A DNA stretch of 64,000 bases from Bacteroidia bacterium (GTDB lineage Bacteria; Bacteroidota; Bacteroidia; NS11-12g; UBA9320): the NCBI GenBank assembly GCA_965216465.1, contig CBDCFW010000006.1:1235334-1299333 (forward strand), written 5' to 3'. Positions 29,244 to 64,000 of this stretch are shown one piece after another (the stretch's first letter is position 1; the number at the start of each line of letters is the position of its first letter). Under the pieces are notes generated by a model that saw nothing but the letters and a program-made list of their open reading frames with translations, was not told the origin of the DNA and made no database searches. A program made the translations under genes and the position numbers.

Positions 29244-29728
29244 AGAACAGTTTATTAGCCTTACTAACCATCCTTTTACTCAGTAGCTGCTCTAATAGCG
29301 AGATTAGAACAGTCGATATCAAACAACTGTTCGATGAGTTTAAGTATACCAAAGAGCTTCAACTTGAATATAAATTAAAGACCCAACAAGAAGAGGCTGC
29401 ATTGGATAGTATGTACAAGCAGTTAGCTGCTATCAAGCAACTAACTTTGAGTGATGGGAGCACTGAAGCTGCAGTTCAAGAAATGGAGATGCGGTTTAAT
29501 CAACGCTATACGCGATTTGAAGATTTTAAGGCTGAACTTACAGCTAAGTCTGATGAAAAGGTGCTGAACCAACTTAGTAACTATATACAACAATACGCGG
29601 AGAAGAAAGAGCTGGATATGATTGTAGCCAAAACTCAAGATGATGTAACCGTGCTTTACGCTGAAGAGTCAATGGATATAACCCAAGAAGTTTTAACTTT
29701 TATTAATGACCTCTACGATGCGAAGTAA
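29240..29728 (+). CDS. OmpH/Skp-family chaperone (lipoprotein-type signal)
   Basis: VDIKQLF, coiled coil, YAEKKELDMIV...VLYA...DITQEVL. Confidence 0.85.
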   Translation: MKNSLLALLTILLLSSCSNSEIRTVDIKQLFDEFKYTKELQLEYKLKTQQEEAALDSMYKQLAAIKQLTLSDGSTEAAVQEMEMRFNQRYTRFEDFKAELTAKSDEKVLNQLSNYIQQYAEKKELDMIVAKTQDDVTVLYAEESMDITQEVLTFINDLYDAK

Positions 29729-30269: not shown

Positions 30270-30271
30270 CT

Positions 30272-35701: not shown

Positions 35702-35719
35702 AAAATTAAAAAAGTACAA

Positions 35720-36298: not shown

Positions 36299-36335
36299 AC
36301 TTATTCTATGGAAACTCTAATTTAAAACTAAAACT

Positions 36336-38498: not shown

Positions 38499-38502
38499 GA
38501 CG

Positions 38503-39159
38503 ATGAAAAACCTACTCACCCTTCTTCTTCTGGGGTTATTTTGGAATGCCACTGCCCAAGATGAGCAAATTGCATCCATGCTCCAAAAAGTTGACCAATC
38601 AATGCGGTCTTCAGAAAATCTTCATTTGGAGTTTACTACTCAAGTCAAGAATTTACAAAGTGGAGAAGTGGAAGAGAATACAACGACTTATTGGAAATCA
38701 GGAAATAAAATTAGAACAAAGCTTGGGAGCTATGAATCTGTCTCAGACGGAAAAGTGCAATTGCACATTGATCACGACGAGAAAAAGATTATTGCCAACA
38801 AGCCTGCAGCAGTAGAAAGTATTGCAGAAGTTGATTTTCAATCCTCACTTAAGTTTTGTGCCAAAAAACTCTTGAAAGATACCTTGGGTCAGCATTTGAT
38901 AGAATTGCACTTCGATTCAAGCTATCCGATTTCTACATTATTTATCTATCTGAAAAAAGATAAATTAACCAAGGTGGTGATTAGCTCTCGTGGATCAACA
39001 CCAACTTTAGTAACCGTTTCTTACGATGTTTTTGACACGTCACCAACTATTTCATCTAAAAAGTTTGATGTGAAAAAATTCATAAACTACAAGAACGGAA
39101 ATATGACTCAAACAATTGACTACCAATCCTATAAACTCTATAATCTATTGAAAGCTTAA
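38503..39159 (+). CDS. LolA-like periplasmic protein
   Basis: Signal peptide; KSGNKIR...VSDGK..LHIDHDEKKII. Confidence 0.55.
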   Translation: MKNLLTLLLLGLFWNATAQDEQIASMLQKVDQSMRSSENLHLEFTTQVKNLQSGEVEENTTTYWKSGNKIRTKLGSYESVSDGKVQLHIDHDEKKIIANKPAAVESIAEVDFQSSLKFCAKKLLKDTLGQHLIELHFDSSYPISTLFIYLKKDKLTKVVISSRGSTPTLVTVSYDVFDTSPTISSKKFDVKKFINYKNGNMTQTIDYQSYKLYNLLKA

Positions 39160-39161
39160 CT

Positions 39162-42100: not shown

Positions 42101-45100
42101 CAACTGTGGTAGCGAATATCACGCAACTCCACCACTGCCAGCAAGCTGTACTGCTTGGGGAGCTGATGATGACATCTGGCAAACCTATGTTTCATATTAC
42201 TTAAGTGCTAAGCAGTTTATACAAAAAGAAATTGCGGATGACTGGGTTATATCTACGGGCCGACTAGGATTTAATGAATGTATTGGCAATGAGAATTATT
42301 CGCCTTCTTCAAGTAATTTGCAAAAGCTTGGGACAGCTCCTGTTTCTGGAACTCCTGCATTTGGAGGGTTAGAAGGTTTGCTAGAACCATGTGGCAATTT
42401 AAATTACACCAAATATCTTAATAAAAAACCACGTTTTGATTTAAAAGCAGTAACCGTAAAAGTGGACGAGGAACTCGCACGCTTTAATAGATCGTACCAG
42501 TTCAATGCCTGTCCGCTTGCCTTAGATTTTGAATTCTTCTTGAATGAGCTAACCAGTAGAGACAAGCTTAAAACGACACAAACTAATCTGGACTTAAAAG
42601 ATTTCAAAAGCCTCACTCCTGCATTGTCGGATGTTATCTTTGGAACAAATCCCGCATCTTCCATTACTTGGAATAGTTCAACAACCGGTAACGTTTTAAC
42701 CGGAAGTTTTCAATACAACTCCAATACGGTTAATGTAAGCTTAACACTAAGCAATGGAACATGGAACGATGTAACTCGAATTTTTGCAATTTCTGATGTT
42801 GTGTTTGACGATGTTTCCGTTCCGAACACATCCAATTTCAACCTTAAAGCATTGCAGTATAATACAACCACAGAAGAGTTTTTACAATCTACAATTGTTG
42901 GCTCTTTTGATGTTGATTTGAATAAGGATTGCAAGTTTGAGGATGAGTGTGAACCTACCGATTACGCATTTACAATTCGCGATATTTTGGCAGGATTAAG
43001 TTTGAACGCAAATGATTTAACCTCTACAACTGCGATTCCCCTTGAAACAACCTATTCTACTTTTATAAAACGATTTGTTCGAAATGAACTAACTGTGGCT
43101 ACAAATCTTGAGTATACCTTTAATAGTACCTCTAACAAGGGAACCATCCATCAGCAAGGAGCAGTTGGTTCTGGAATTGATATTAACTTCCCAAGTGGGT
43201 TTAGTGTTTCAAGCATTGCAACAATATACGGAATTGAGGTGGATAAAGACAAGGTAGCAAACGGTTTAGTAATCTTATACATTGATAGTAATGGAGATAA
43301 ACAAAGCGTTAAAGTAACCGTAAGCAAGGGTCAAACAGCGAAGTGTTTTGACCCTACAAAGATGTTTTGTGAAGATATTCGCTATGATGTAACTCGCGAC
43401 TTTGCCTCTTTATTAGAATACTTAATCGAAAATCCTTCAGTAAACAATGTAAACCTGAACGACAACAACTTGTATACGGCTTTACTTCAGAGTTATATAG
43501 GACACGGTGATGCCGTATTCAATGTTCCTGTAAGTGGCAATGATGGAAACGAATTGACTACAACAATTGATGTATTCGAAACGGGAACAGCAAACAAGTT
43601 GACTACATGTGAGCTTAAACTTTATAGAAAAATGTATGGTGACGTGCAGACCGATATTCCATTGACTGATATTACCGATATTGGCGAGTTGCAAGTAGAC
43701 ATGGAAAATCTTCACATGGGAGACGCCCATCACTTTACTGTTTTAGCCGTATTTAATAACAAAACAGATTATGCTGAAGAAATTCATGGTTATATATCCT
43801 GCCTTCCTTTATTTGATTGTGCTGATTGTGTAGAGAAGGAAGAGGATGATGCAGAAAAGAAATGTGGAAACTACGAATATGAGTTATATTATCATGAAAT
43901 GATGCAACTTGGTATGGAAGGTTTGATTATACCTTATTCTGATGATTTTCCTTGCTCTTGTGTTGAAGAGTATTTATACTATGTAAAACTTGCCGTGCTC
44001 AGTGCAAATAGCAATTCCACAGCGATTACCAATGCAGTGCCTCAATTAAATCCAACATTGGGAATTGATGAGTTTGTTTTACCACCGTACAACTGTACGG
44101 TTACCTTTCCTGACTGTGATGTCACTCAGGAAATTCTACCAAATATCGTAGCTGAAGTCAATAATTTCAATGCACAATATGCACAATACTTTCCTACTTT
44201 AAGCCCGCCTAGTCTGGTAACTGGTGATGATTGTCATTGTGCTGCTAAATATTTAATATATCTAGAATTATGGACTTCCTTGTATGGAACCAATGTTCCG
44301 CCAATCCCACCATCAGCCATACCCATTCCTCCATTGAGCTATAACAATTTTCAAATTGGAGGTTGCCAAATTGATCAGTGTCTGGTAAACTATAAAATGT
44401 ATCGTGACAAAACCACTTCTGTAGGCGGAGTGCCTATTGTATTTGATCCTGCAATTGGGTGTGATTGTTGGAAACATTATGCACTCGAAGCGAATTTGCT
44501 AACCCCTCACTTATCAACTGATATTACAAATTATTGCAGCAATCGATTGATAAACTTAACATCTTCTTATCCTCCAAAATATGACCACGTTAATTTCGAT
44601 GAGGAATTGACCATGTTTGAGGTCAGCTATGCAGATGATGCACCTATTGAATCAAGATCAAGAAGCTTTAATGAATGCGAACCGCCCGAATTTGATGTGT
44701 TTAGAGTGAATATTCCAGACCGTTGTTCAACATGGCTCGACAATCTCGCAGAAGAAAATGCACGTGTTCGCTATGAGCAGCAAATGGACCAGCTTAGACA
44801 GCAATTCCATAACGGCTACATGGATAAGTGTTTGAATATTGACGAGAGTTTAGACTTTGTAATGCCTATTCAAGACTACCATTACACGCTCTACTATTAC
44901 GATCAAGCTGGGAATTTGGTCAGAACCGTACCTCCAGCAGGTGTGGTCGTTGAAACGGATGTTAATGATCTAGCTGAAATCAAAGAAGATAGAATTAACA
45001 AAACGAGAAATTATGCAACCTTGCACGGACTTTCAACAGTTTACGAATACAACAGTTTACAACAGTTAACCAGACAACATGTACCAGACAACGACCCAAT

Positions 45101-48100
45101 GGATGACAAGTATGTTCTTCGTTCTAGTGGATTGCCAACTGATTTCGAAACGCATGATGTTGTATTTACTGATCCAACCCACGCAATCCTAGTAGGAACC
45201 AACACTGACGATGAGACTGAAATTTACCAGTCGTCAGATGCAGGAGAAACTTGGGTGCGACATAACGGTTTAAGAACCGACGACATACTCGATGTTGAGA
45301 TGTATGATGCGAATCAAGGATTTGCAGTTGGATCGGGCGGCGTATTCCTACATACAAAAGATGCTGGAGACAATTGGAAAATAGTTTACCATTCAGATCT
45401 AATCGGCAAAGACTTTACTAGCTTAGATTTAGCTATAGGTGTAAGCCCTGACCCTAAAGGAATTATAGCAGGCAATGATGCAGAGACCATTGAATTTGAA
45501 TATACTACCTCTTCAGGAGCATATGCTTTTAGCATTCTTGGCTTCAATACCACAGCTGACGAAGGTGACTTTGTAGACCTCGAGTTTAAAGATGCTAATG
45601 TAGCCTATGCTATCGTCAATACCGCAACAGATCAGCGTGTATTAAGCATAGATCTTTCTGCAGGTACACCGAAATGGACAAACTGGGATATTGATGAAAA
45701 TGTAAGACTCACCAACCTAAATGACGGGTGGTTCTATGGATCGGGTTCTTCCGATGGATATGTAGTAGGTGACGATGGAGTAGTGGCTCAAGCCGGAAAT
45801 GTAGGAGATAATTTTGATCAAATTGCAACTGGATTGACTGCTGATTTATTGCAGGTATACTTTAAAGATGTTAACAACGGAATAGCCTTAGGTGATGACG
45901 GATTTATTTACAGAACCACAAACGCTGGACAACAATGGACGGCTATGAATGGTATAGGCTCATACAATCAATTCCATATCTACGACGAAGCAAACGGTTT
46001 AGGATTTGCGGTTGGAGATGATGGAATAATTGCGGCAGTAGATATTTCGGAAGCCTATGTTAATCGACTGAGCTATACCCCTTTAAAATCTGACGATTTT
46101 ACTGCGGTTGGATTTGAAGATGATGAGCATGGATTAATCGGAACTTCTTCAGGAAAGGTATTCCGGGTTGAGAATCAACCTAGCGGTGTTTACTTTGATG
46201 ATTTGTTCTATGGCTCTGCTTCTTCAATCGAGCAACTTCATCTTGAAGGAAGTGTCGGGATAGTTCTAAACGCTGGTGCGGAAATGAAACGAATAGATAT
46301 TTCAGGATCTGTTGGAACCTACTCTATATCAACACCAACACTATTAAAATCAGGTGTAGAGAATTGGAGTATTGAAGGATCTACTCTATTTGCCTTAACA
46401 ACGGCTGCATCTCCAGCGGTGGAAGAATACAGTTCAACCAATCCCCAAGCGTACTCCATATCAACTACTCCATCACACCCCATTACTCAAAAGTCTTCAG
46501 GAGAAACGTTGCATTTTGTGGCAAACAGAACGTCAACCGATTACTTTGCTGGTGGTACAAATGGAGAACTTAACAGAGAGCTTTCATCAACTTCATCAAA
46601 TGTTTCTAAAAATACCAGTCCTCTGACATTAACAAGTTTGGATGTTGAGGGTAATTATGTTGCATTGGTGGCTGAAGATGGTAGATTATATGTTTCAGAA
46701 TCGCAGTTTGATGATATACGATTACGAGCGTCAAATCACCGTGGTGATTTGTTTGATTTAGACATTAACAGCTCGGGTGAAGGCTTTGCTATTGCTGATG
46801 ATTGTAAACTGTATGCACTTACATCAGGTGTGATTACAACCTCTGAGCTGCCCATTGACGCACATGCCGTTACCTTCGATAATCTAAATTCTCTTTGGGT
46901 TGCAAACGATAACTTTGTGTATGAAACGGCTACTGGCGGTGTCTCATGGCAGCTCACAGCGGAAGCTGAAGACGACCGAAGTTTTAGAACGATAAAACGA
47001 TTCAACAATGAATTGGTTTATGCAGGAACTGACGGTCTGGTATCTACCAACGATGGTAATCTGGATCAAGGATTTATTACATCTGATGTTCTTTACGATA
47101 TGGATTTAGAAGGTGCATATGGTCTCCTTGGAGGAGAAAATGGACTTTCATTTAGCTCAACAAGTTTCGGAGAATATTGGAACATCAATCCATACGCTCC
47201 TGATCATATACAAGGGGTGCATGTAAAAGATGAGAACACGGCATATTTCTTAGGAAGTAATGGCTTAAATGAACAGGCCAATATTTATTATACTTCTGTT
47301 ATATCGATGGGACTTGCATCCACTTCAGGAATTACCTACTATGCCGCAGATGAAAACCACAGAGGAACTGAAGTTTTAGTTTCTACCGATGGATTGTATC
47401 GCAAGCTTGATGGACAGTCTTGGGTGTTGATGCAATCTAGTGCAGTGCTCAAAGATGTATCTGTGCAAAGGAGTACAGCCTTTGCTGTTGGAGACAATAA
47501 GCAGATATACCGAATTTTAAATGTAAACCAATCCTCTGGTTATACACTCGATAATCTTACAACACTGTCTGGTACTAACATTCCAGGTTTACCAGCATCC
47601 AATTATACAAAAGTGGTGCAATACGGTAACAACGATGCATTTGTAGTCGGAACAAGTGGGTCTATAATAAAAACAGTAAACGCTGGGGCAGAATGGAATG
47701 CTTATGATTCAGATATTAATGAAACCAATACGAACGATGATATATACGCTATTGCGGTCTCAGGCAGAGAGAATATTATAATTGGAGGTGATGCCAAGTT
47801 TGCAAATGCAATTTATGATCGCGGCGGATTCGCTACCTCACTCTTCTACTATGATCGATTGGGAAGAATGGTAGCAAGTCAAAATGCGAATCAATTTGAC
47901 ACCGCTCACTCGTATACAATTTATGATGAAATTGGAAGGATTAAAGAAGTTGGAGAGAAGGTAAGCAGTACGCCAATGGAGGACAATTACGTGGATGGAC
48001 AAATGGACGATGCACTATTTACCGCATGGTTAACAGCTGGAGCCTTTAATACCCGAAAAGAAATTACGCGTACGCATTACGATGAGCAAACAGTAGCTCC

Positions 48101-51100
48101 TGCTGCAGAAATTATTCAAGTCAACCTCCGCAAGCGTGTGGCGAGTATGACCTATGAGGCCGTTTATGATGGATCAGACCTTACCTACGATGCAGCAACG
48201 CACTATACCTATGATATTCATGGCAACGTTGACCACCTGGTTCAAGAAATTCCAGAATTGGATGCTATAGGCCAGGCATTTAAGCATATATACTATGAAT
48301 ATGATCTCGTGAGCGGCAACGTAAACAAGGTGTCTTACAATCCAGGTGAAGATGATGCATACTATCACAAATACGAGTACGATGCAGACAATCGAATTGT
48401 TGATGTTTATACGAGTATTGACGATTGCATTTGGGACAACGATGCAAACTACAACTACTATAAACATGGGCCACTGGCACGTACAGAAATAGGAGACCTT
48501 AAAGTACAAGGCCAAGACTTTGCTTATACTATTCATGGATGGTTAAAAGGAGTGAATAGCAGCACCCTGGATCGAACGAGAGACATGGGTAGAGACGGTG
48601 ATATTTCCATTACGAATCATCCATACAAGTATTATGGAGGTGATGTGTATGGTTATTCATTAGGATATTATGAATCTGGTGCGAGTGACTATCAATCTAT
48701 AACGTCGTTCACCACAGCCAATTATTTCTTGGCTCAAGTTTCAGGCTCTGATCTGCTTAATGAACGTTGGGACTTGTACAATGGAAATATAGGTTACATG
48801 GTAACAGCTATTCCTGATGTAACGATATACAATTCAGGATATACTATCACAGCTGCTCCTCGAGCAAGTGCTTACAAATACGATCAATTGAACAGAATAA
48901 TAAGCAATAGAAGCTTCGACAATATCGATATGGTGAATAATTTCTGGCAGTCTGGAACTGGGGCGAGTAACAGTTATAGAACAGATTATACCTACGATGC
49001 TATGGGTAATATACTTACTCTTCAGAGGTACAATGAAACTCAGTTGATAGATGATTTACAGTACTATTATGACAACAATAACGGCTCTGGGACGTTGCAA
49101 AGCAACAAGCTTTATCATGTACACGATTATGCTGGTAAGGTAATGACCAATGATATTGCTGGGCTTGATACGGTGAAATGGGATACAGTAGAAACACAAA
49201 ACAACTTCCAATACGACAAGCTAGGAAACTTAGTGAAGGATAAGGAGGAATTGATAGATACGATATTATGGACCGTGTATGGCAAGATTGCTGAAATTCA
49301 CAGAAGAACGGATACCGTGCATCAAAAGGCTGATCTTGCCTTTAAGTATGATGCATCTGGCAATCGAATAATCAAAACAGTTAAACCAAGAGATACGTTT
49401 GGAGTAATAAAGCCGTCGGATGATTGGATTCATACCTACTACCTGCGGGATGCAAGTGGTAATATTATGGCGGTTTACAACTATGTTGGAGATGACTTCT
49501 CATGGGAAGAAGCTCACATATATGGTAGCAGTAGAATTGGAGTTTACAAGCCAAGCAAAGTTTTAGAAGACAATGATTGCACGCTTGATTTCGACGTAGA
49601 TACTATGTGGACAAGTGCCATGGGCCAACAAGCCTTTGACGATGAAATGGTCAACGCATTTAACAGCACGGGCTTGCAGCATGTTTCTACATTCTTAATG
49701 AGCAACTTGCAATACATCAACCAGTCAGTTGAAAATGCAAGAACTACAGCACCAAGCAAAACTGAATTTGCAGCATACTTGGATGGATTAGAACGTTATT
49801 TATGTAAATTTAAAGCATATACAATTCCTGACGATTCAACCTTCCACAATGAACTTTTACCGGAAATTGATGATGAATTTGACTTGAATTGGATGTTGCC
49901 AAAGATGGATATAACCAATGTTTCATCCATAGAAACGTATTGGGACGGTGCCGTGGTAAGAATACAAAAATCGTTGAATCAGATTTATGGTTACCAAGCA
50001 CCTGATGAAGTTTCATTACGCTTGTTAGGAAGCAAGAGGTATGAGTTAAGCAATCATCTGGGCAATGTTTTGGTAACGGTGACGGACAAAAAAGTTGCTG
50101 TGGCCGATATATCCGGATTGATTATAGAACAGTTCAATGCTGAGATAAAAACCATCTCCGATTACTATCCATTTGGGATGCTGATTGAAGAACGGTCAAT
50201 TTCTGGGGTGTCAAATGTGAGTAAATTAACCCACTCTCCGAACCCTACTTACACCTTTGTAACTCAGTTACCGAATGGTGATATTCAGTGGACAAAACAC
50301 GCTTGGAAAGGCGGCGGTGTATCGCAAGAAGTATACACTGAAAATTGTCGAGTAGTGTGGAACGATCCATTGGGTGTAGGCGGTACCCGAGCACATGCAG
50401 GACTATCGAGTCAAACCTATTCGTCCATTTGGAATATAGAATATCGTATCACCACAGATGTATCTCAGACCAATTATGGGTATCGTGTAATTGGCGGTTC
50501 ATCTGGCCTAACAGGAATAGCAGTACAGGCTGGCGACCAAGCCGTTGTAGAACGATTGAATGGAATTATTTATCTTTACATCATCAGAGCCAACGGAACA
50601 CGAATAGACATTGTAAATTTCGCAGAATCCTATGCAGATATGCCTTTGCGAGCGGCATACTACTGTGATATTGCATCGGCAACCAACGTCCTCACCATGG
50701 ATTTGGATTTCTATGGCCCCAATGGGTATCGATTTGGGTTTAATGGTTATGAAAATGAACCAAAAGTAGCTGGAGAAGGAAGTGTTATTGATTTTGGGGC
50801 TAGAATATATGACTCAAGGCTAGGAAGGTTTCATAGCACAGATCCGTATTTTAAGATGTTGCCAACATTCAGCACCTATGGTTATGCTATCAGTAATCCA
50901 GTATTGATGAAAGATGGAAATGGTATGGGGCCCATACCATTTCGCTTTAAAGAATTTCTAAGCGATGATTCATATTATTTTACTGGTCTTCTAGCAGGAA
51001 TCGGAGATGGCCTCGTTGAAAGCGTTGATATGATGCTTGGTGTAGTGGAAGCCAAAGATGCTTGGAATCCAACCGCAGGTCTATTTTATACTGCACGTGG

Positions 51101-51686: not shown

Positions 51687-51970
51687 TGAAAATTGAAAGG
51701 CATTTTAACAGGTTAACTTTGCAACTTCATGGAGATTGCGAGTTTGAAGAGTTTTTTGAAATTGCCGAAAGGTTTCAAAAAATAATGAATATTGGGAAGT
51801 TCTCTAAAAGTGACTCATTTGATAATTTATACTGGAAGTTTAGATTTAATTGCACAACCTACTACCTTAATTATAGTGTCGATTTTGGGGTGTTCGTGTA
51901 TGCCAAATACAAGTGGTCAGAGGAAAGTATAAGAAAAGTGAAGAAATATTTAATAGAAAATGGCTGGTGA
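51686..51970 (+). CDS. Cytoplasmic immunity protein for CT1 (DUF3630-like)
   Basis: TAATG overlap with the toxin stop codon; small, no signal peptide. Confidence 0.7.
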   Translation: MKIERHFNRLTLQLHGDCEFEEFFEIAERFQKIMNIGKFSKSDSFDNLYWKFRFNCTTYYLNYSVDFGVFVYAKYKWSEESIRKVKKYLIENGW

Positions 51971-52256
51971 GCAGATTAAACTCACAACTGGGATTTGTCA
52001 GATACCATTGATAAGTTAATGATAAATAGATTTGCTACTAAATTAGTAATCGGCATTGCTCTTCCCAAATGTTAGAGGACTAATGTGTTAATTATATTTA
52101 GCTTAGAGTACTTTACCAATATACACTAAGAAGAAATCAATGCGATTTTTAAACAGTTTCTAGCGGGTTTTCGTAAGCATAAGCTGATTCATATTAAATG
52201 AAACTCATTGACGCCAAAATTTCATAGTTTTAGACTAAAAATATAGTCACTTTTTG

Positions 52257-53756: not shown

Positions 53757-53758
53757 TT

Positions 53759-54265
53759 ATGAAGAGCAAAATTATAATCATCACCTTGTTAGTTGCAAGT
53801 TGTTCAAGTTCTAAGTACTGTAGCTTCAAAACTGACCCTGACAAGGAAATTTACAGAGGGGAAGATGAAATTGAAGAAATCAATGCTGTACAGGAAAGGG
53901 GGTCTCTTTTCAATCTTAAAATAGGAGATTTGACAGAAATGATAGATTCGCTAGCACACTTTCATTTCGGAGATTCTTCTATCAGCTACAAAACAAGTTA
54001 CCATTACAAGCTCACTTGGGATTCAACAGGAACCATAATTGAATTCTATGATTGGCAGAGTCCAAGTCTATTTGGAAATTCTATTGAGCAACTTTTTAAA
54101 AGCATTCAACCATTGAATCCACCAGTCTTCCTAGAAAGCTATAAAAGCTTCGGAACATATGAATCGAAAGCTAATATATATGTGGTGTTTAAGAACTATA
54201 AAAGTGTGATTAAAATATACTATGACAAAGCAGTTCTTCCCGAACAAGTATTTAAAGAACCCTAA
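53759..54265 (+). CDS. Lipoprotein immunity candidate for CT2
   Basis: Starts 2 nt after the toxin stop; lipobox LVASC. Confidence 0.7.
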   Translation: MKSKIIIITLLVASCSSSKYCSFKTDPDKEIYRGEDEIEEINAVQERGSLFNLKIGDLTEMIDSLAHFHFGDSSISYKTSYHYKLTWDSTGTIIEFYDWQSPSLFGNSIEQLFKSIQPLNPPVFLESYKSFGTYESKANIYVVFKNYKSVIKIYYDKAVLPEQVFKEP

Positions 54266-54458
54266 TTGGCTTGATGAGAAGAGTTCATAAAAGAAACCAC
54301 ATAAAAGAGGTTTGTAGTATTCGATTATTTGGAAGGAGGAGCTTAAAGCCAGTTATTACTGCACTATCATTAAAATATTTTGATTGTACACGACTTTTGA
54401 CTATGCACCTCGCAGGAGTATAGTAAAAGTATAACGACATAAATGATGTATCTCATTT

Positions 54459-54629
54459 TATTCAAATCGATACCTGTCCGGGCCATAGAAATCCAGGCCC
54501 ATGGTGAGGACATTGGTAGTAGAGCCAACACCAGCGTAGTAGCCAGCTCTTAGTGGCATGTCAGCATAGGATTCAACTACGTTTCCAAAATCTATTCGTG
54601 TTCCGTTTGCTCTTATACGTAAAAATAAA
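54459..54629 (-). pseudogene. Degenerate Rhs cassette remnant (insert allele B)
   Basis: Reverse complement reads [52 protein letters not shown]. Confidence 0.88.
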
Positions 54630-54768
54630 AACATTGACCTAGCTACGTTATTTCATTAGTGAGGTCTAGTTTTTTGAAGAATGAATCTCTTGAAATACTG
54701 TAAGTTTTAAAAGTCTTTCTTAATCGATTATCTTTTAACTGCCTTCGTAAGTCCTTATCAATAAATAC

Positions 54769-54816
54769 TTTCGACCACTTCAGGGTCTCCTGCAAGGGAC
54801 CCTGAAGTGGTCGAAA
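54769..54816. repeat. REP-like palindrome, copy 2 (19-bp stem)
   Basis: TTTCGACCACTTCAGGGTC-TCCTGCAAGG-GACCCTGAAGTGGTCGAAA. Confidence 0.8.
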
Positions 54817-54869
54817 AGTTACAACCTGAAATTAGTTAGGGTATTTCTAGTTTTGGCAAGATTCCAACA

Positions 54870-55583
54870 TTACGTGCAATCACAGTCTCTAATAATTTTT
54901 TTTATCGGCTCAATTGATTGTATCGTTTTTATATGATAAATTGGAACTGAAGTCTCTGTTACTCTTACTTTAGTTCTTCGTCCTTTTACCCTTAGCTCTT
55001 TTATTTTTCTTCTTCTAGTGGATTCAATCTGATTCAATTGTGAATAGCCGAGGGAAATTTTAAATACATAAATAGTTTCACAGAGATTTAGGCTATCTAC
55101 GTCTCTTTTTCTTCTTGTTTTGTTGCCAAGGTAGCCTCTCTTCCTTAATTTTTTCATCAATACTCTTTTATGGTCGCAGTAAAGTCCTGATATAGAATCT
55201 GTTGATGAAAACTCAGAGCCTTTTAATGTTGAATCAAATGAAATTTGAGTTATAAATCCTTCAAAGCTTGAAAGCTTATATCGGCCATTTAAATAATCAA
55301 TAGAATCGTGAACTAGGTGTGTTAGTCTCGAACTTAAGTAGTAAATAAAATAGCCGCCTTGATAATGAAATTTATTATTTGAGGTGTCAAACTTATGTAT
55401 ACCTTTAACAGCTTCTCCTGGAAAATAGTCCCAACATTCTACAGAATTTATTGGACAAGAAGTCAAAGCCAGTACAAATGTGTCGTATATTATTTGATTG
55501 TTGATAATTTTATCTGACACTTGACCTTTTGATGAAATCATGATCAAAAACATAACAAGAAGTATAGCATTTCTAATCATCAT
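54870..55583 (-). CDS. Exported immunity candidate for CT3
   Basis: ATGA overlap with the toxin stop; signal peptide. Confidence 0.7.
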
Positions 55584-58500
55584 TCTTCTAAGGTTGATCT
55601 GTTTTTATCAATTATATCCTTGGTATTTTGACTTGTCGGGTAGACTTTATTATGTTCATTAGAAGAAAGACCTACATCATAATACTCATATCCAAATGTA
55701 TGCCCTCTTTCCGTCGAGTTGTGACCGGCCTCATGAACAACTCCTTCAGTTCTGTTAATGTACGTAAAAGTTGTTCTTTCTCCCATTGCATTTATTCGTT
55801 CAGCTTCAAAACTCCAATTTTCATCGTCATCCCATAACGCTACATTCAGAAATATTACATCCATACCTTTTGTGTAGCCCCAACCACCTGCATCTGGCGA
55901 TTCAAGAAAATCTGCATTTGCTTTTAGATTGAGTTGATAAAATTCAATTCTAGGATCATTATCATCTGAAAGTGTAGTTAAATCAGGAGTAAATAATGTA
56001 CTTGAAGGATCATTCATTGCCACTATCCCCCTTGCAGCTGGATCTTCACTCTGCCATTCCAATATCTCTTCAAAAGTCATTCCTTCCGTTGTGGTTAGAG
56101 AATAATTATAAGAAATCTCAGTTACATAGTAATTTACTCCAGCTTCTCTAAGTTTTTCGGCAAATCTAGATTTACCTGCTTCAAGTTTTTTTGCCCATCT
56201 AATGTGTTTTTTCTTTTCAAGATATTGAGCTTCCTGAGTAGCTGTTGGTAATTGGGTCATAAATACAACAGAGTTACCTCTGCTGTAATGATTACTAAAT
56301 GCTACTGGATCTATCCTATTTGCGGCATCAGATACAGCACCAGGTCCTTCAGTCACCACCTTATACTCCTTTGTTATAGTTATGGTTGCTCGTCCAGGTT
56401 CTCCAGTTGAAGTATTTGGCTCACTTGTAACTGTTTTATTCAATTTCTCAGCACCTTCGATGTCTATACATCTTACTACATCATTTTCAGCAAATGCATA
56501 AGTTGAATTCCATGGGTATTGTCCATCTAACGGATCCACACTCAAGAACCTACCTAACCTCGCATCATGAATTCTATATTTAAATGCATATGAATTTCCT
56601 TCGCCTGCAACTTCGTCATCTCCTTCTTGACCTTGGAACCCAAATCTATACCCATTAGGTCCATAGAAATCCAAGTCCATGGTGAGGACGTTGGTGGCTG
56701 ATGCAATATCACAGTAGTATGCCGCTCGCAAAGGCATATCTGCATAGGATTCTGCGAAATTTACAATGTCTATTCGTGTTCCGTTGGCTCTGATGATGTA
56801 AAGATAAATAATTCCATTCAATCGTTCTACAACGGCTTGGTCGCCAGCCTGTACTGCTATTCCTGTTAGGCCAGATGAGCCACCAATTACACGATACCCA
56901 TAATTGGTCTGCGATACGTCTGTGGTGATACGATATTCTATATTCCAAATGGACGAATAGGTTTGACTCGATAGTCCTGCATGTGCTCGGGTACCGCCTA
57001 CACCCAATGGATCGTTCCACACTACTCGACAATTTTCAGTGTATACTTCTTGCGATACACCGCCGCCTTTCCAAGCGTGTTTTGTCCACTGAATATCACC
57101 GTTTGGTAACTGAGTTACAAAGGTGTAAGAAGGGTTCGGTGAGTGGGTTAATTTACTCACATTTGACACCCCAGAAATTGACCGTTCTTCAATCAGCATC
57201 CCAAATGGATAGTAATCGGAGATGGTTTTTATCTCAGCATTGAACTGTTCTATAATCAATCCGGATATATCGGCCACAGCAACTTTTTTGTCCGTCACCG
57301 TTACCAAAACATTGCCCAGATGATTGCTTAACTCATACCTCTTGCTTCCTAACAAGCGTAATGAAACTTCATCAGGTGCTTGGTAACCATAAATCTGATT
57401 CAACGATTTTTGTATTCTTACCACGGCACCGTCCCAATACGTTTCTATGGATGAAACATTGGTTATATCCATCTTTGGCAACATCCAATTCAAGTCAAAT
57501 TCATCATCAATTTCCGGTAAAAGTTCATTGTGGAAGGTTGAATCGTCAGGAATTGTATATGCTTTAAATTTACATAAATAACGTTCTAATCCATCCAAGT
57601 ATGCTGCAAATTCAGTTTTGCTTGGTGCTGTAGTTCTTGCATTTTCAACTGACTGGTTGATGTATTGCAAGTTGCTCATTAAGAATGTAGAAACATGCTG
57701 CAAGCCCGTGCTGTTAAATGCGTTGACCATTTCATCGTCAAAGGCTTGTTGGCCCATGGCACTTGTCCACATAGTATCTACGTCGAAATCAAGCGTGCAA
57801 TCATTGTCTTCTAAAACTTTGCTTGGCTTGTAAACTCCAATTCTACTGCTACCATATATGTGAGCTTCTTCCCATGAGAAGTCATCTCCAACATAGTTGT
57901 AAACCGCCATAATATTACCACTTGCATCCCGCAGGTAGTAGGTATGAATCCAATCATCCGACGGCTTTATTACTCCAAACGTATCTCTTGGTTTAACTGT
58001 TTTGATTATTCGATTGCCAGATGCATCATACTTAAAGGCAAGATCAGCCTTTTGATGCACGGTATCCGTTCTTCTGTGAATTTCAGCAATCTTGCCATAC
58101 ACGGTCCATAATATCGTATCTATCAATTCCTCCTTATCCTTCACTAAGTTTCCTAGCTTGTCGTATTGGAAGTTGTTTTGTGTTTCTACTGTATCCCATT
58201 TCACCGTATCAAGCCCAGCAATATCATTGGTCATTACCTTACCAGCATAATCGTGTACATGATAAAGCTTGTTGCTTTGCAACGTCCCAGAGCCGTTATT
58301 GTTGTCATAATAGTACTGTAAATCATCTATCAACTGAGTTTCATTGTACCTCTGAAGAGTAAGTATATTACCCATAGCATCGTAGGTATAATCTGTTCTA
58401 TAACTGTTACTCGCCCCAGTTCCAGACTGCCAGAAATTATTCACCATATCGATATTGTCGAAGCTTCTATTGCTTATTATTCTGTTCAATTGATCGTATT

Positions 58501-61500
58501 TGTAAGCACTTGCTCGAGGAGCAGCTGTGATAGTATATCCTGAATTGTATATCGTTACATCAGGAATAGCTGTTACCATGTAACCTATATTTCCATTGTA
58601 CAAGTCCCAACGTTCATTAAGCAGATCAGAGCCTGAAACTTGAGCCAAGAAATAATTGGCTGTGGTGAACGACGTTATAGATTGATAGTCACTCGCACCA
58701 GATTCATAATATCCTAATGAATAACCATACACATCACCTCCATAATACTTGTATGGATGATTCGTAATGGAAATATCACCGTCTCTACCCATGTCTCTCG
58801 TTCGATCCAGGGTGCTGCTATTCACTCCTTTTAACCATCCATGAATAGTATAAGCAAAGTCTTGGCCTTGTACTTTAAGGTCTCCTATTTCTGTACGTGC
58901 CAGTGGCCCATGTTTATAGTAGTTGTAGTTTGCATCGTTGTCCCAAATGCAATCGTCAATACTCGTATAAACATCAACAATTCGATTGTCTGCATCGTAC
59001 TCGTATTTGTGATAGTATGCATCATCTTCACCTGGATTGTAAGACACCTTGTTTACGTTGCCGCTCACGAGATCATATTCATAGTATATATGCTTAAATG
59101 CCTGGCCTATAGCATCCAATTCTGGAATTTCTTGAACCAGGTGGTCAACGTTGCCATGAATATCATAGGTATAGTGCGTTGCTGCATCGTAGGTAAGGTC
59201 TGATCCATCATAAACGGCCTCATAGGTCATACTCGCCACACGCTTGCGGAGGTTGACTTGAATAATTTCTGCAGCAGGAGCTACTGTTTGCTCATCGTAA
59301 TGCGTACGCGTAATTTCTTTTCGGGTATTAAAGGCTCCAGCTGTTAACCATGCGGTAAATAGTGCATCGTCCATTTGTCCATCCACGTAATTGTCCTCCA
59401 TTGGCGTACTGCTTACCTTCTCTCCAACTTCTTTAATCCTTCCAATTTCATCATAAATTGTATACGAGTGAGCGGTGTCAAATTGATTCGCATTTTGACT
59501 TGCTACCATTCTTCCCAATCGATCATAGTAGAAGAGTGAGGTAGCGAATCCGCCGCGATCATAAATTGCATTTGCAAACTTGGCATCACCTCCAATTATA
59601 ATATTCTCTCTGCCTGAGACCGCAATAGCGTATATATCATCGTTCGTATTGGTTTCATTAATATCTGAATCATAAGCATTCCATTCTGCCCCAGCGTTTA
59701 CTGTTTTTATTATAGACCCACTTGTTCCGACTACAAATGCATCGTTGTTACCGTATTGCACCACTTTTGTATAATTGGATGCTGGTAAACCTGGAATGTT
59801 AGTACCAGACAGTGTTGTAAGATTATCGAGTGTATAACCAGAGGATTGGTTTACATTTAAAATTCGGTATATCTGCTTATTGTCTCCAACAGCAAAGGCT
59901 GTACTCCTTTGCACAGATACATCTTTGAGCACTGCACTAGATTGCATCAACACCCAAGACTGTCCATCAAGCTTGCGATACAATCCATCGGTAGAAACTA
60001 AAACTTCAGTTCCTCTGTGGTTTTCATCTGCGGCATAGTAGGTAATTCCTGAAGTGGATGCAAGTCCCATCGATATAACAGAAGTATAATAAATATTGGC
60101 CTGTTCATTTAAGCCATTACTTCCTAAGAAATATGCCGTGTTCTCATCTTTTACATGCACCCCTTGTATATGATCAGGAGCGTATGGATTGATGTTCCAA
60201 TATTCTCCGAAACTTGTTGAGCTAAATGAAAGTCCATTTTCTCCTCCAAGGAGACCATATGCACCTTCTAAATCCATATCGTAAAGAACATCAGATGTAA
60301 TAAATCCTTGATCCAGATTACCATCGTTGGTAGATACCAGACCGTCAGTTCCTGCATAAACCAATTCATTGTTGAATCGTTTTATCGTTCTAAAACTTCG
60401 GTCGTCTTCAGCTTCCGCTGTGAGCTGCCATGAGACACCGCCAGTAGCCGTTTCATACACAAAGTTATCGTTTGCAACCCAAAGAGAATTTAGATTATCG
60501 AAGGTAACGGCATGTGCGTCAATGGGCAGCTCAGAGGTTGTAATCACACCTGATGTAAGTGCATACAGTTTACAATCATCAGCAATAGCAAAGCCTTCAC
60601 CCGAGCTGTTAATGTCTAAATCAAACAAATCACCACGGTGATTTGACGCTCGTAATCGTATATCATCAAACTGCGATTCTGAAACATATAATCTACCATC
60701 TTCAGCCACCAATGCAACATAATTACCCTCAACATCCAAACTTGTTAATGTCAGAGGACTGGTATTTTTAGAAACATTTGATGAAGTTGATGAAAGCTCT
60801 CTGTTAAGTTCTCCATTTGTACCACCAGCAAAGTAATCGGTTGACGTTCTGTTTGCCACAAAATGCAACGTTTCTCCTGAAGACTTTTGAGTAATGGGGT
60901 GTGATGGAGTAGTTGATATGGAGTACGCTTGGGGATTGGTTGAACTGTATTCTTCCACCGCTGGAGATGCAGCCGTTGTTAAGGCAAATAGAGTAGATCC
61001 TTCAATACTCCAATTCTCTACACCTGATTTTAATAGTGTTGGTGTTGATATAGAGTAGGTTCCAACAGATCCTGAAATATCTATTCGTTTCATTTCCGCA
61101 CCAGCGTTTAGAACTATCCCGACACTTCCTTCAAGATGAAGTTGCTCGATTGAAGAAGCAGAGCCATAGAACAAATCATCAAAGTAAACACCGCTAGGTT
61201 GATTCTCAACCCGGAATACCTTTCCTGAAGAAGTTCCGATTAATCCATGCTCATCATCTTCAAATCCAACCGCAGTAAAATCGTCAGATTTTAAAGGGGT
61301 ATAGCTCAGTCGATTAACATAGGCTTCCGAAATATCTACTGCCGCAATTATTCCATCATCTCCAACCGCAAATCCTAAACCGTTTGCTTCGTCGTAGATA
61401 TGGAATTGATTGTATGAGCCTATACCATTCATAGCCGTCCATTGTTGTCCAGCGTTTGTGGTTCTGTAAATAAATCCGTCATCACCTAAGGCTATTCCGT

Positions 61501-64000
61501 TGTTAACATCTTTAAAGTATACCTGCAATAAATCAGCAGTCAATCCAGTTGCAATTTGATCAAAATTATCTCCTACATTTCCGGCTTGAGCCACTACTCC
61601 ATCGTCACCTACTACATATCCATCGGAAGAACCCGATCCATAGAACCACCCGTCATTTAGGTTGGTGAGTCTTACATTTTCATCAATATCCCAGTTTGTC
61701 CATTTCGGTGTACCTGCAGAAAGATCTATGCTTAATACACGCTGATCTGTTGCGGTATTGACGATAGCATAGGCTACATTAGCATCTTTAAACTCGAGGT
61801 CTACAAAGTCACCTTCGTCAGCTGTGGTATTGAAGCCAAGAATGCTAAAAGCATATGCTCCTGAAGAGGTAGTATATTCAAATTCAATGGTCTCTGCATC
61901 ATTGCCTGCTATAATTCCTTTAGGGTCAGGGCTTACACCTATAGCTAAATCTAAGCTAGTAAAGTCTTTGCCGATTAGATCTGAATGGTAAACTATTTTC
62001 CAATTGTCTCCAGCATCTTTTGTATGTAGGAATACGCCGCCCGATCCAACTGCAAATCCTTGATTCGCATCATACATCTCAACATCGAGTATGTCGTCGG
62101 TTCTTAAACCGTTATGTCGCACCCAAGTTTCTCCTGCATCTGACGACTGGTAAATTTCAGTCTCATCGTCAGTGTTGGTTCCTACTAGGATTGCGTGGGT
62201 TGGATCAGTAAATACAACATCATGCGTTTCGAAATCAGTTGGCAATCCACTAGAACGAAGAACATACTTGTCATCCATTGGGTCGTTGTCTGGTACATGT
62301 TGTCTGGTTAACTGTTGTAAACTGTTGTATTCGTAAACTGTTGAAAGTCCGTGCAAGGTTGCATAATTTCTCGTTTTGTTAATTCTATCTTCTTTGATTT
62401 CAGCTAGATCATTAACATCCGTTTCAACGACCACACCTGCTGGAGGTACGGTTCTGACCAAATTCCCAGCTTGATCGTAATAGTAGAGCGTGTAATGGTA
62501 GTCTTGAATAGGCATTACAAAGTCTAAACTCTCGTCAATATTCAAACACTTATCCATGTAGCCGTTATGGAATTGCTGTCTAAGCTGGTCCATTTGCTGC
62601 TCATAGCGAACACGTGCATTTTCTTCTGCGAGATTGTCGAGCCATGTTGAACAACGGTCTGGAATATTCACTCTAAACACATCAAATTCGGGCGGTTCGC
62701 ATTCATTAAAGCTTCTTGATCTTGATTCAATAGGTGCATCATCTGCATAGCTGACCTCAAACATGGTCAATTCCTCATCGAAATTAACGTGGTCATATTT
62801 TGGAGGATAAGAAGATGTTAAGTTTATCAATCGATTGCTGCAATAATTTGTAATATCAGTTGATAAGTGAGGGGTTAGCAAATTCGCTTCGAGTGCATAA
62901 TGTTTCCAACAATCACAACCCAATTGCAAGGATCAAATACAATAGGCACTCCGCCTACAGAAGTGGTTTTGTCACGATACATTTTATAGTTTACCAGACA
63001 CTGATCAATTTGGCAACCTCCAATTTGAAAATTGTTATAGCTCAATGGAGGAATGGGTATGGCTGATGGTGGGATTGGCGGAACATTGGTTCCATACAAG
63101 GAAGTCCATAATTCTAGATATATTAAATATTTAGCAGCACAATGACAATCATCACCAGTTACCAGACTAGGCGGGCTTAAAGTAGGAAAGTATTGTGCAT
63201 ATTGTGCATTGAAATTATTGACTTCAGCTACGATATTTGGTAGAATTTCCTGAGTGACATCACAGTCAGGAAAGGTAACCGTACAGTTGTACGGTGGTAA
63301 AACAAACTCATCAATTCCCAATGTTGGATTTAATTGAGGCACTGCATTGGTAATCGCTGTGGAATTGCTATTTGCACTGAGCACGGCAAGTTTTACATAG
63401 TATAAATACTCTTCAACACAAGAGCAAGGAAAATCATCAGAATAAGGTATAATCAAACCTTCCATACCAAGTTGCATCATTTCATGATAATATAACTCAT
63501 ATTCGTAGTTTCCACATTTCTTTTCTGCATCATCCTCTTCCTTCTCTACACAATCAGCACAATCAAATAAAGGAAGGCAGGATATATAACCATGAATTTC
63601 TTCAGCATAATCTGTTTTGTTATTAAATACGGCTAAAACAGTAAAGTGATGGGCGTCTCCATGTGAAGATTTTCCATGTCTACTTGCAACTCGCCAATAT
63701 CGGTAATATCAGTCAATGGAATATCGGTCTGCACGTCACCATACATTTTTCTATAAAGTTTAAGCTCACATGTAGTCAACTTGTTTGCTGTTCCCGTTTC
63801 GAATACATCAATTGTTGTAGTCAATTCGTTTCCATCATTGCCACTTACAGGAACATTGAATACGGCATCACCGTGTCCTATATAACTCTGAAGTAAAGCC
63901 GTATACAAGTTGTTGTCGTTCAGGTTTACATTGTTTACTGAAGGATTTTCGATTAAGTATTCTAATAAAGAGGCAAAGTCGCGAGTTACATCATAGCGAA
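55580..64000 (-). CDS. Second (inverted) copy of the giant Rhs gene, 5'-truncated by the window, fused to toxin CT3 (HExxH metallopeptidase-like); indels near 62918, 62929 and 63660
   Basis: Matches the + copy to YRFGF, then QGQE...[16 protein letters not shown]...IDIEG; HEAGH at 55721-55735. Confidence 0.85.
56637..64000. repeat. Right arm of the inverted repeat
   Basis: Reverse complement of 43378-50740. Confidence 0.95.

Follow-up and report, generated by a model that had tools for sequence, protein, structure and literature searches.

A giant Rhs-type toxin gene and its inverted tip cassettes in a Bacteroidia bacterium: a likely shufflon-like toxin switch

Gene content of the locus

The window, i.e. 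the whole stretch of 64,000 nucleotides analysed here, carries on its forward strand a giant gene for an Rhs-type polymorphic toxin (positions 39162..51686), which as assembled with the tip CT1 corresponds in the list of open reading frames (ORFs) to a protein of 4174 aa. Profile searches placed DUF6443 at aa 315-392, a BNR/Ycf48-like stretch at aa 1989-2076 and the Rhs-associated core TIGR03696 (Rhs_assc_core) at aa 3857-3922 (33.9 bits, cut-off 32.5), and the best match to the RHS/YD repeat (PF05593; E 0.0046, 17.8 bits) lay below the cut-off of 22 bits. TIGR03696, used here to recognise Rhs/YD-repeat polymorphic toxins, was found in the giant protein as well as in orphan 2 and CT3, the two further tips of the locus.

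Each cassette opens with a shared region of about 190 aa. In the giant gene this region forms the left inverted repeat (50167..50740, +), which according to repeat search, blastn and alignment is 97% identical to positions 56637-57210 of the opposite strand and shares about 80-89% identity with orphan 2. The following CT1 tip (50741..51686, +) comprises the end of the Rhs-associated core motif and a putative toxin domain; it had no Pfam or PDB sequence match and has an identical copy at the end of another contig, C5. Its stop codon overlaps the start of candidate immunity gene 1 (51686..51970, +; 94 aa in the ORF list), so named from its position, for which DUF3630 was matched at sub-threshold level only. 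Orphan cassette 2 is a 500-aa ORF on the same strand (52254..53756, +) with TIGR03696 at aa 190-256 (40.5 bits) and a tip that had no PDB match. It is followed in the ORF list by candidate immunity gene 2 (53759..54265, +; 168 aa), likewise named from its position and with no family match in the profile search.

The remaining part of the cassette region is on the reverse strand. Repeats, alignment and translation revealed a decayed cassette remnant (54454..54635, -), reduced to the final ~163 nt of the shared region, terminated by a stop and devoid of the site described below. Between the remnant and the next gene, sequence inspection showed a perfect hairpin with 16-bp arms (54772..54813), likely a two-way terminator; it should be added that this hairpin is a spot at which joints between contigs and loose ends accumulate in the metagenome runs. 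Candidate immunity gene 3 (54870..55583, -; 237 aa in the ORF list) had no family match in the profile search and overlaps the stop of the CT3 tip (55580..56636, -), a putative toxin encoded opposite to CT1 as part of ORF 55580..62929, with TIGR03696 at 40.0 bits and no PDB match. The shared cassette-opening region of CT3 represents the right inverted repeat (56637..57210, -) and carries 14 CT3-type variants. Small ORFs thus overlap or abut the stop of each tip, an anatomy that fits pairs of tip and immunity gene, and judging from sequence the tips are probably toxins with matching immunity.

Homology among the three cassette contexts begins sharply at a proposed recombination site, copy 1 of which covers the DYYPFGM codons at the boundary of core and cassette (50160..50194, +). 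Copy 2, aligned where orphan cassette 2 begins (52251..52285, +), has a degenerate left half; copy 3 (57183..57217, -) is the mirror of 50160-50194, as located from a 27-mer and by mirror arithmetic. This 27-mer occurs four times in the genome, at 50169(+), 52260(+), 57208(-) and C5:753258. The first-pass annotation had let the homology of orphan 2 begin near 50166, in agreement with the sequence shared from 50166/52257 onward. As in shufflons, alternative 3' ends are bounded by inverted sites, one of which lies inside the expressed gene.

The fold-back repeat and a recombinase-linked cassette on a second contig

The observation that had drawn attention to the locus, namely that positions 56637-64000 are the reverse complement of 43378-50740, was borne out by repeat search and blastn (7365 aligned columns, 99.77% identity, 14 mismatches and 3 gaps in the alignment of both arms). 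As had also been described, the three indels (left arm 43718, 44450 and 44459; right arm 63661, 62928 and 62918) are confined to the final 1.1 kb of the window and disrupt the frame of the right arm (ORF 55580..62929). The abrupt onset of about 14 mostly synonymous substitutions at 50237 was reproduced too: the arms have none across 43378-50236 (zero in 6.86 kb) and all 14 in 50237-50730, 13 being synonymous. The first two differences (50237 and 50247) match orphan 2, as stated earlier, and it is the CT3 arm that carries the letters of orphan 2. Since the T/C marker at 50166 travels with the flank and variants specific to the tip are seen from 50237 on, the crossover is bracketed to 50167-50236.

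The fold-back copy of core 43378-50166 occupies 57211..64000 (-), with zero substitutions and the three indels of the last 1.1 kb, and runs off the contig, since base 64000 of the window is the final base of contig C6. In blastn against the 3.23 Mb assembly, positions 28000-43377 (the 5' part of the gene and the upstream sequence) matched only themselves, and neither the initial 4.2 kb of the Rhs gene nor its upstream operon has a partner in the assembly. In view of the position at the contig end, the restriction of indels to the last 1.1 kb and the missing partner for 28000-43377, the right arm 57211..64000 most likely represents the flipped state, which the assembler appended to the same contig, and the giant gene probably has no real inverted second copy of the kind that the first-pass annotation had headlined.

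The second context of CT1 is located at the end of contig C5, where positions 753256-754815 are 100% identical to window 50167-51726 (1560 bp), all CT1-type variants included. The cassette is preceded by the Rhs core in C6 and by a tyrosine recombinase gene in the flank at the C5 end. This gene (C5:752118-753182; L001:17303-18367) encodes 354 aa with PF00589 above the cut-off (E 1.7e-7) and ends upstream of the cassette, 76 nt before its start. The catalytic residues R180, H291, R294, H317 and Y327 are invariant among seven homologues. The earlier remark that no recombinase is visible in the window holds, as the genome-wide profile search gave four PF00589 and three PF00239 matches, all of them elsewhere; neither the window nor the end of C5 has any of the three resolvase-family (PF00239) matches. 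With the PF00589 recombinase beside the C5 copy of CT1, a site-specific recombinase does adjoin the putatively invertible DNA, as in shufflon-type systems, its gene lying outside the window.

Three of the four possible junctions are directly seen in the assembly, which originates from a metagenome bin and is therefore compatible with either two fixed strains or switching. The fourth predicted junction, that of the recombinase flank with CT3, is absent from the assembly, which counts against the explanation favoured below.

Four public runs were available as Logan contigs of low-depth metagenomes with a word depth of about 3. Their contigs break at 50195 and span no junction. CT1 and core contigs had depths of 6.1 and 3.2 in run X1 and 5.9 and 3.5 in run X2, values that do not equate to copy numbers. 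Two genuine copies of CT1 would account for its roughly doubled depth, which counts against the explanation favoured below; other strains or contexts are apparent from loose ends. In X1, the core contig at 3.2 compares with 3.0 for the 12-kb contig of the upstream flank, depth again being no reliable copy number.

Cassette orientation in related loci of Bacteroidota

Homologues of the recombinase (E <= 1e-40) were detected in 7 of 40 relatives. All four intra-contig loci of close relatives (G014, G027, G037 and G032:C3) have cassettes in both orientations; the fetched stretch holds a single giant gene in the first three, and G032:C3 had no core match within the 20 kb fetched. Furthermore, relatives of the recombinase occur across Bacteroidota, being encoded in 392 stretches of the phylum-wide set, of which the best 80 were examined. 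At least one Rhs tip cassette junction was present in 62 of these best 80 loci, and 16 of the 18 junction-less loci have less than 500 nt of flank on one side. The nearest junction is at most 600 nt from the recombinase gene in 41 of the 62 loci and in all 41 has its 5' end facing that gene. Among 23 cassette loci linked to a giant gene, at least one inverted orphan was found in 22, co-oriented orphans only in none, and no orphan in one.

In each of the 31 loci with cassettes of both orientations, the junctions carry inverted repeats. Most of these begin 44-63 nt ahead of YRFGFNG, and the position of copy 1 coincides with this common start. The shared repeat always spans the DYYPFGM codons, and in six loci the repeat at the site is just 32-40 nt long. 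In the pairs of giant gene and orphan that could be anchored (11 of 24), median identity was 0.94 over the 35-nt site vs 0.25 just upstream. In the related loci examined, a single giant gene accompanies cassettes of both orientations and no two facing giant gene copies were seen. Many of the related assemblies break exactly at the first cassette.

Other arrangements exist as well. Mixed-orientation clusters whose fetched stretch gave no homologue of the recombinase (G003:C105, G032:C17, G032:C18, G037:C5 and G037:C11:884-898k) count against the favoured explanation; three of these five are whole short contigs. So do purely co-oriented arrays linked to the recombinase, found for example in G036:C7 (13 cassettes), L057 (five), L048 and L099, which look like cassette storage and not switching. 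The recombinase-free relative G007 has four co-oriented junctions.

Proposed inversion, its alternatives and known systems

The locus is most likely a shufflon-like toxin switch. In the reading to which we give fairly good credence, the chromosome would bear a single giant Rhs-type gene (39162 to about 50166), followed by an invertible cassette segment of ~7 kb (50167-57210) and, beyond it, by the dedicated tyrosine recombinase gene now found at the end of contig C5, both orientations being present in the sequenced population. One strand of the segment would hold CT1 with imm1 and orphan 2 with imm2, the other CT3 with imm3 and the dead remnant. The same ~35-bp site, overlapping the DYYPFGM codons where the Rhs shell ends, would open every live cassette, and recombination between the site at the core end and an inverted one at a cassette start would flip the intervening DNA, fusing the alternative tip in frame to the core with its immunity gene behind and nothing lost. 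As a consequence of both orientations in the population, the assembler would have written core-CT1 and CT3-core on one contig and recombinase-CT1 on another. We infer that the segment flips in this population and that this recombinase catalyses the exchange at this site. Of the two options given by the first-pass annotation, one gene with ~50.2-57.2 kb probably flipping and an assembler fold-back is preferred on account of the C5 junction of CT1, the missing partner of 28000-43377, the recombinase and the recurrent layout; a genuine inverted duplication is disfavoured, as that partner is missing and, apart from the cassette, three indels at the contig end are all that distinguishes the arms.

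Such a duplication, if everything assembled were real, would imply two convergent Rhs copies of at least 7.4 kb with different tips and recent origin, plus a third, orphan CT1 beside the recombinase at another place on the chromosome. The contig as written does show this, and the CT1 contig is about twice as deep as the core in two runs. We nevertheless regard it as very improbable: the first 4.2 kb of the gene and the upstream operon lack a second copy in the assembly, the core in X1 is about as deep (3.2) as the 12-kb upstream flank (3.0; to be read with caution), 6.86 kb with zero substitutions would stand next to three indels that break the frame right where the contig ends, and related loci pair cassettes of both orientations with one giant gene and no facing giant copies. 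Little more probability is given to a static locus of one orientation, in which the fold-back and the C5 tip would be assembler errors or chimeric reads across the 574-bp repeat. The three indels at the end of the right arm look as if one or few unpolished reads carried the contig, both odd ends are contig dead ends, and public contigs give no independent support for the junctions. Two separate wrong joins would, however, be required (core-CT3 on C6 or core-CT1, and flank-CT1 on C5), each keeping tip-specific variants in phase and that on C5 error-free over 1560 bp, and the many related assemblies that break exactly at the first cassette fit a real ambiguity.

It is also unlikely, if somewhat less so, that the inversion is real but performed by RecA across the 574-bp repeat, with the recombinase serving cassette capture or excision in a rAID- or integron-like manner. 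The inverted repeat is long and about 97% identical, so that RecA could invert it without a recombinase, which weighs against the favoured explanation; recombinases of the family also adjoin the purely co-oriented arrays of G036:C7 (with its 13 cassettes), L057, L048 and L099, and published rAID arrays, in the available text, pair a tyrosine recombinase with co-oriented genes (10.1101/471110). Three points speak against this reading. The inverted sequence shared at the site has just 32-40 nt in six loci, a length typical of recombinase core sites but a poor substrate for RecA. At the present locus the exchange is confined to the initial 70 nt of the 574-bp repeat, the part that contains the site. 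Finally, 22 of the 23 loci with a giant gene have an inverted orphan, and storage by itself would not require one.

The R64 shufflon uses the tyrosine recombinase Rci and carries pilV tips on invertible segments with short inverted sites. It resembles the Rhs locus in the constant 5' part of the gene, the alternative 3' ends on invertible segments between short inverted sites, the adjacent tyrosine recombinase gene and the lossless reversible switching proposed here. It differs in its cargo, a pilus adhesin and not an Rhs tip with immunity gene; moreover, the present site lies inside the conserved DYYPFGM codons and the recombinase is a distant PF00589 member with predicted activity. The G segment of phage Mu (Gin) and related tail-fibre invertons rely on serine invertases with an enhancer, unlike the tyrosine recombinase here, but inversion there exchanges, as proposed for the Rhs locus, the C-terminal specificity part of a long protein, the N-terminal part being constant. 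The R64 shufflon is named in the available text of PMC10028968, and that of PMC9881135 (Milman et al. 2023), a survey of gene-altering programmed inversions including type I restriction hsdS invertons, lists Mu-like tail fibre. The hsdS invertons as described there are similar in that inverted repeats reach into the target gene and silent copies of parts of it lie close by, in many cases together with a tyrosine recombinase; "Rhs" and "toxin" have no occurrence in the main text of PMC9881135, supplements aside.

[quoted passage not shown] The stated criteria are a 5' XerD-like recombinase more than 44% identical to BF9343_RS08045 and at least two co-directional downstream genes of low G+C (10.1101/471110). 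As far as that text goes, rAID-1 shares with our locus the occurrence in Bacteroidota, a tyrosine recombinase heading an array related to polymorphic toxins, repeats between units and a first unit co-directional with the recombinase. Our units, in contrast, are complete tip ORFs of at least 500 aa, which together with their immunity genes occupy both strands downstream of the recombinase and face a full-length gene for a 4174-aa toxin, an arrangement other than a rAID-1 array. G+C is uninformative in this comparison, the genome being at 38%.

Work ascribed to Jackson in 2009 and Koskiniemi in 2013/2014 (cited in PMC6421346) is said to have found that orphan tips of Rhs and CDI systems are exchanged by homologous recombination. 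In these classical systems, as here, pairs of tip and immunity gene lie downstream of the main rhs gene and share the core end, orphan 2 being a co-oriented example; there, exchange requires copies in the same orientation and leads to the loss or duplication of DNA, whereas the present locus has at least one inverted cassette and a linked recombinase, and its exchange would be reversible. CT3 and the remnant on the opposite strand set it apart from a classical co-oriented orphan array. No description of such an Rhs tip switch was found in the literature searched.

Rhs and CDI tips are thought to change by rare one-way recombination with co-oriented orphans. If the recombinase-driven reversible switch is true, the identity of toxin and immunity would be a phase-variable trait and clonal populations would field several toxins at once with no cassette lost, which would bear on kin discrimination, strain coexistence and the reading of metagenome assemblies. 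On the scale of the phylum, we see about an even chance of a dedicated system in which a distinct clade of tyrosine recombinases, acting at a ~35-bp DYYPFGM site, reversibly flips cassettes of tip and immunity gene onto a single giant gene, and direct sites may store or capture cassettes. Shufflons, rAID-like arrays and polymorphic toxins would then be linked in one mechanism, and tyrosine recombinases beside toxin/immunity arrays of Bacteroidota would gain a role that can be put to the test, with a 35-bp sequence as candidate target. The layout is also present in cultured Flavobacterium strains, and the idea is therefore open to testing at the bench.

Inverted arms and cassettes of the giant Rhs gene

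The product of the giant Rhs gene (39162-51686), 4174 aa long, contains DUF6443 and a BNR-like stretch, and its residues 3857-3922 form the Rhs-associated core domain, scoring above the TIGR03696 cut-off. A repeat search of the window returned three collinear inverted pairs between 43378-50781 and 56596-64000, which blastn merged into a single alignment of 7365 columns (99.77% identity, 14 mismatches, 3 gaps). As sequence, the repeat is thus genuine and exact: the right arm (56637-64000) is the reverse complement of the left (43378-50740), as the first-pass annotation had proposed. Base-by-base comparison revealed no substitutions in 43378-50236; all 14 lie within 50237-50730, 13 of them synonymous, and at the first two differences the arm leading to toxin tip CT3 bears the letters of orphan cassette 2, whose homology starts at 52257. 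Three single-base indels were located at left-arm positions 43718, 44450 and 44459 (right-arm 63661, 62928 and 62918). They break the right-arm frame, so that the minus-strand ORF is limited to 55580..62929. The late onset of mostly synonymous substitutions, the three indels and the two orphan 2 letters had all been recorded correctly from sequence inspection, and every factual statement of that annotation held. Contig C6 measures 1,299,333 bases and the window spans its positions 1235334-1299333; the right arm therefore runs off the contig. Given this dead-end position and zero substitutions elsewhere over 6.86 kb, we infer that the three indels at the extremity of C6 reflect thin, unpolished read support, not divergence of a real copy.

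Three cassette contexts, namely core-CT1, imm1-orphan 2 (imm1 being a candidate immunity gene) and a flank-CT1 joint on another contig of the assembly, C5, together with the mirror core-CT3, turn alike at one spot only, ATCCATTTGGG, which holds the codons for YPFG. A 27-nt word from this spot has four copies in the genome, at 50169(+), 52260(+), 57208(-) and C5:753258(+). Cassettes proceed from a common region of ~190 aa through the last part of the Rhs-associated core motif to an unrelated tip, and a small ORF overlaps or abuts the stop of each tip. The tips had no Pfam matches and no NCBIfam matches beyond TIGR03696, and the CT1, orphan 2 and CT3 tips had no PDB sequence matches at E <= 0.1. 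A fourth, decayed cassette remnant (54454-54635, minus strand) lacks the opening site; between it and immunity gene 3 lies a perfect hairpin with 16-bp arms (54772-54813).

It should be added that in every live cassette (50200-50726, its mirror and orphan 2) ~186 aa separate DYYPFGM from YRFGFNG, a spacing of only ~17 aa in relatives, and that the common stretch at 50200-50726 has a G+C content of 44% vs 35-39% in the tips. The giant gene is immediately preceded by seven closely spaced ORFs on the plus strand (28320-39159). One product is OmpH-like, another has a weak DUF928 match, a third is 1809 aa long and a fourth, of 720 aa, shows an RHS repeat below threshold, the others being without family; together they may form a delivery machinery for giant toxins of the DUF6443 type.

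A tyrosine recombinase on C5 and the orientation of the cassette segment

Comparison of 28000-64000 with the 6-contig, 3.23 Mb assembly matched the last 1.57 kb of C5 to window 50153-51726. From C5:753256 to the contig end, the sequence is 100% identical to 50167-51726, every CT1-type variant included, and upstream of that position C5 is unrelated to the Rhs core. There, stretch L001 of C5 carries a tyrosine recombinase ORF of 354 aa (L001:17303-18367), which ends 76 nt before the cassette anchor and matches PF00589 (E 1.7e-7, above the curated cut-off). Residues R180, H291, R294, H317 and Y327, which we take to be the catalytic Arg-His-Arg-His-Tyr set of this family, are invariant among seven homologues. 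The genome has four PF00589 and three resolvase-family matches, none of them inside the window, where the first-pass annotation had likewise seen no recombinase gene. The recombinase is closely preceded by an ORF of 192 aa (L001:16402-16980) with a T6SS immunity Tdi1 C-terminal domain (PF08906, E 5.9e-8), a solitary immunity-like gene beyond the recombinase.

These joints would be accommodated by one core followed by a segment, 50167-57210, that can face either way before the C5 flank begins; four junctions would then be possible. Three of the four are present in the assembly: core-CT1 (C6, left) represents one orientation, and core-CT3 (C6, right, fold-back) together with flank-CT1 (C5) the opposite one. 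The T/C difference at 50166 goes with the flank and the tip-specific variants begin at 50237; exchange would therefore fall within 50167-50236. No second copy of 28000-43377 was found in the assembly, and the supposed second gene is therefore devoid of both its 5' part and the upstream operon. What had been termed an inverted copy of the giant gene is real as sequence but probably not as a second gene; most likely, one locus was written twice, once in its flipped state. The best reading, reasonably probable in our view, is that the locus operates as a shufflon-like toxin switch.

A real inverted duplication with different tips would require an unseen 5' half of the second gene and a third copy of CT1. 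In its favour, the CT1 contig had about twice the core depth in two public metagenome runs, X1 and X2, such depths not being copy numbers; in X1, the core contig (depth 3.2) hardly differed from the 12-kb upstream flank contig (3.0), which does not suggest two cores. Pure assembly error would demand two independent wrong joins, each keeping the variants in phase. The source being a metagenome bin, the two orientations could also belong to two very close strains.

The public data comprised four runs of one study, all available as Logan contigs of low-depth metagenomes, which were compared with 38001-58000 and gave word depths of ~2-6 that are not copy numbers. Run contigs end at 50195 and none bridges 50195-50277, so that no junction of either orientation is spanned. 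Contigs of X1 and X2 depart from the window at 51289, 51930, 47943 and 44410 into DNA outside the assembly, and therefore distal CT1 and parts of the core also occur there in other contexts or strains. Six loose-end sequences of the runs, absent from the assembly at <=3 mismatches, derive from other strains or contexts in the run samples and have no bearing on flipping. An exact scan of metagenome contigs for the 27-nt cassette-start word gave 0 stretches.

Both X1 and X2 contain a contig linking 54817 to 52247 with TTATA in between, and further joints and loose ends cluster at the 54772-54813 hairpin (54770, 54773 and 54805). The joint could reflect a different arrangement of cassettes in some related strain, orphan 2 joined to itself as a circle or in tandem, or an artefact of the assembly graph at the palindrome. 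Elsewhere in the assembly, the first 204 bases of contig C1 equal the last 204 of C3, and the two are probably joinable; the end of C4 (297173-299463) consists of >2 kb of degenerate tandem repeats with ~75-79% identity between copies.

Cassette orientation and the proposed recombination site across the phylum

With the recombinase as query, homologues at E <= 1e-40 were detected in 7 of 40 relatives. Cassettes occupied both strands at all four homologues located inside contigs, the remaining ones being at contig ends. In genome G014, the recombinase is followed by two plus-strand cassettes, one minus-strand cassette and the minus-strand tip of a giant gene. G027 has a plus-strand giant gene with its tip, one further plus cassette, two minus cassettes and then the recombinase (-), and in G037 one plus-strand orphan stands opposite a minus-strand giant gene, with an 82-nt inverted repeat at 95%. 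Contig C3 of G032 bears five plus and four minus cassettes, with no core match within the 20 kb fetched.

For a wider survey, a recombinase alignment was searched against one genome per species, loci being picked by the recombinase alone. Relatives of the recombinase are encoded in 392 stretches, and the best 80 were kept. These belong to Chitinophagales, Flavobacteriales, Sphingobacteriales and Cytophagales, and include cultured strains of Flavobacterium, Aquimarina and Hyunsoonleella and one record labelled as a bin of Akkermansia, presumably not a Bacteroidota genus. A cassette-junction profile built from 19 cassettes matched 62 of these best 80 loci; 16 of the 18 others retain <500 nt of sequence on one side, their contigs breaking off immediately before or behind the recombinase. 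Cassettes fused to a giant open frame were present at 23 of the best 80 loci, of which 22 have at least one oppositely oriented orphan, none has only co-oriented ones and one is without a detected orphan. The nearest junction lies <600 nt from the recombinase gene in 41 of the 62 loci, its 5' end facing the gene in all 41, and ~1.2-4.5 kb away in the other 21, mostly Flavobacteriia. Those of the 21 that show a giant gene (L077, L087, L090, L091, L096, L097 and L098) have the recombinase between its tip and an inverted orphan, inside the would-be flipping segment; L087 belongs to Flavobacterium sp. Root420 and L097 to Flavobacterium pectinovorum DSM 6368. L066, L071 and L092 (Flavobacterium agri, Flavobacterium sp. 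C4GT6 and Tamlana sp., all cultured) are whole short contigs carrying the recombinase with an inverted cassette-junction repeat at both ends, as expected if a segment between two sites assembles alone. None of the locus pairs among the 80 was >93% identical and thereby apt to display both orientations.

Inverted repeats were found at the junctions of all 31 loci holding both orientations. Most of them start at the DYYPFGM codons, 44-63 nt ahead of those for YRFGFNG, and at L035, L044, L051, L053, L065 and L075 the site repeat measures just 32-40 nt (L035 shows a second, weaker match of 53 nt farther along). Among 24 giant/orphan pairs, 13 were dropped since the CCNTTYGG anchor was not in both partners. 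In the 11 anchored pairs, identity over 35 nt was 0.89-1.00 (median 0.94), and just upstream of the site the median was 0.25; only site and upstream figures were used, ungapped identity downstream being unreliable owing to indels and shifted HMM starts. Across 76 anchored sites at 44 loci, the consensus reads GATTACTATCCNTTYGGGATGNTNATGCCNGGNAG. In 37 of 61 orphans both Tyr codons before PFG are retained, though nothing is translated into them. A short, locus-specific and near-identical inverted word, as large as the core site of a recombinase, within otherwise diverged cassettes is what a site-specific system would predict. RecA could invert the 574-bp repeat of this genome; general recombination predicts the short inverted site word less well. 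A search for a dyad arm/spacer structure within the site returned only a weak ATCC-N4-GGNAT in 50 of 76 sites, part of which is fixed by the anchor expression itself.

Relation to known systems

The proposed system would resemble shufflons and the G-segment switch of Mu, with an invariable 5' portion, exchangeable 3' ends carried by invertible DNA and a recombinase next to them. A full-text literature search, covering openly available main texts, found no recombinase-driven inversion of Rhs tips. The main texts of a survey of gene-altering programmed inversions (PMC9881135) and of an intragenic-inverton paper (PMC10028968) have no occurrence of "Rhs" or "toxin". Zhang et al. 2012 described XerC/D-type recombinases beside polyimmunity loci, in a text having no occurrence of "inversion" or "inverted". 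Rhs targets or inverted arrays could still appear in the supplementary tables of PMC9881135, PMC10028968 and 10.1101/471110. The locus belongs to a widespread arrangement in which a tyrosine recombinase and a putative ~35-bp site in the DYYPFGM codons accompany Rhs tip/immunity cassettes of both orientations; as far as found in the open literature it is undescribed, though an earlier description may exist.

In content, the nearest described relative is rAID-1 of Bacteroidales, where a tyrosine recombinase stands at the head of orphan immunity genes that all point the same way and have recurring motifs between them, an array interpreted as a defence store (10.1101/471110, 10.1101/2025.05.03.651265); the texts consulted mention neither inversion nor Rhs. 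Among the relatives, a stretch of G036 (C7:86000-117521; L108 and L109) has 13 co-oriented cassette junctions in a row, with a divergent family recombinase upstream of the array and a truncated one inside, a layout that seems closer to rAID or an integron than to a switch. At L057, five cassettes beside a family recombinase are purely co-oriented. Furthermore, five mixed-orientation clusters have no family recombinase in the fetched stretch, three of these being whole short contigs, and G007 shows the classical layout of four co-oriented junctions, recombinase-free. Owing to these purely co-oriented arrays, the recombinase-free mixed clusters and G007, the recombinase family may also serve cassette storage or capture.
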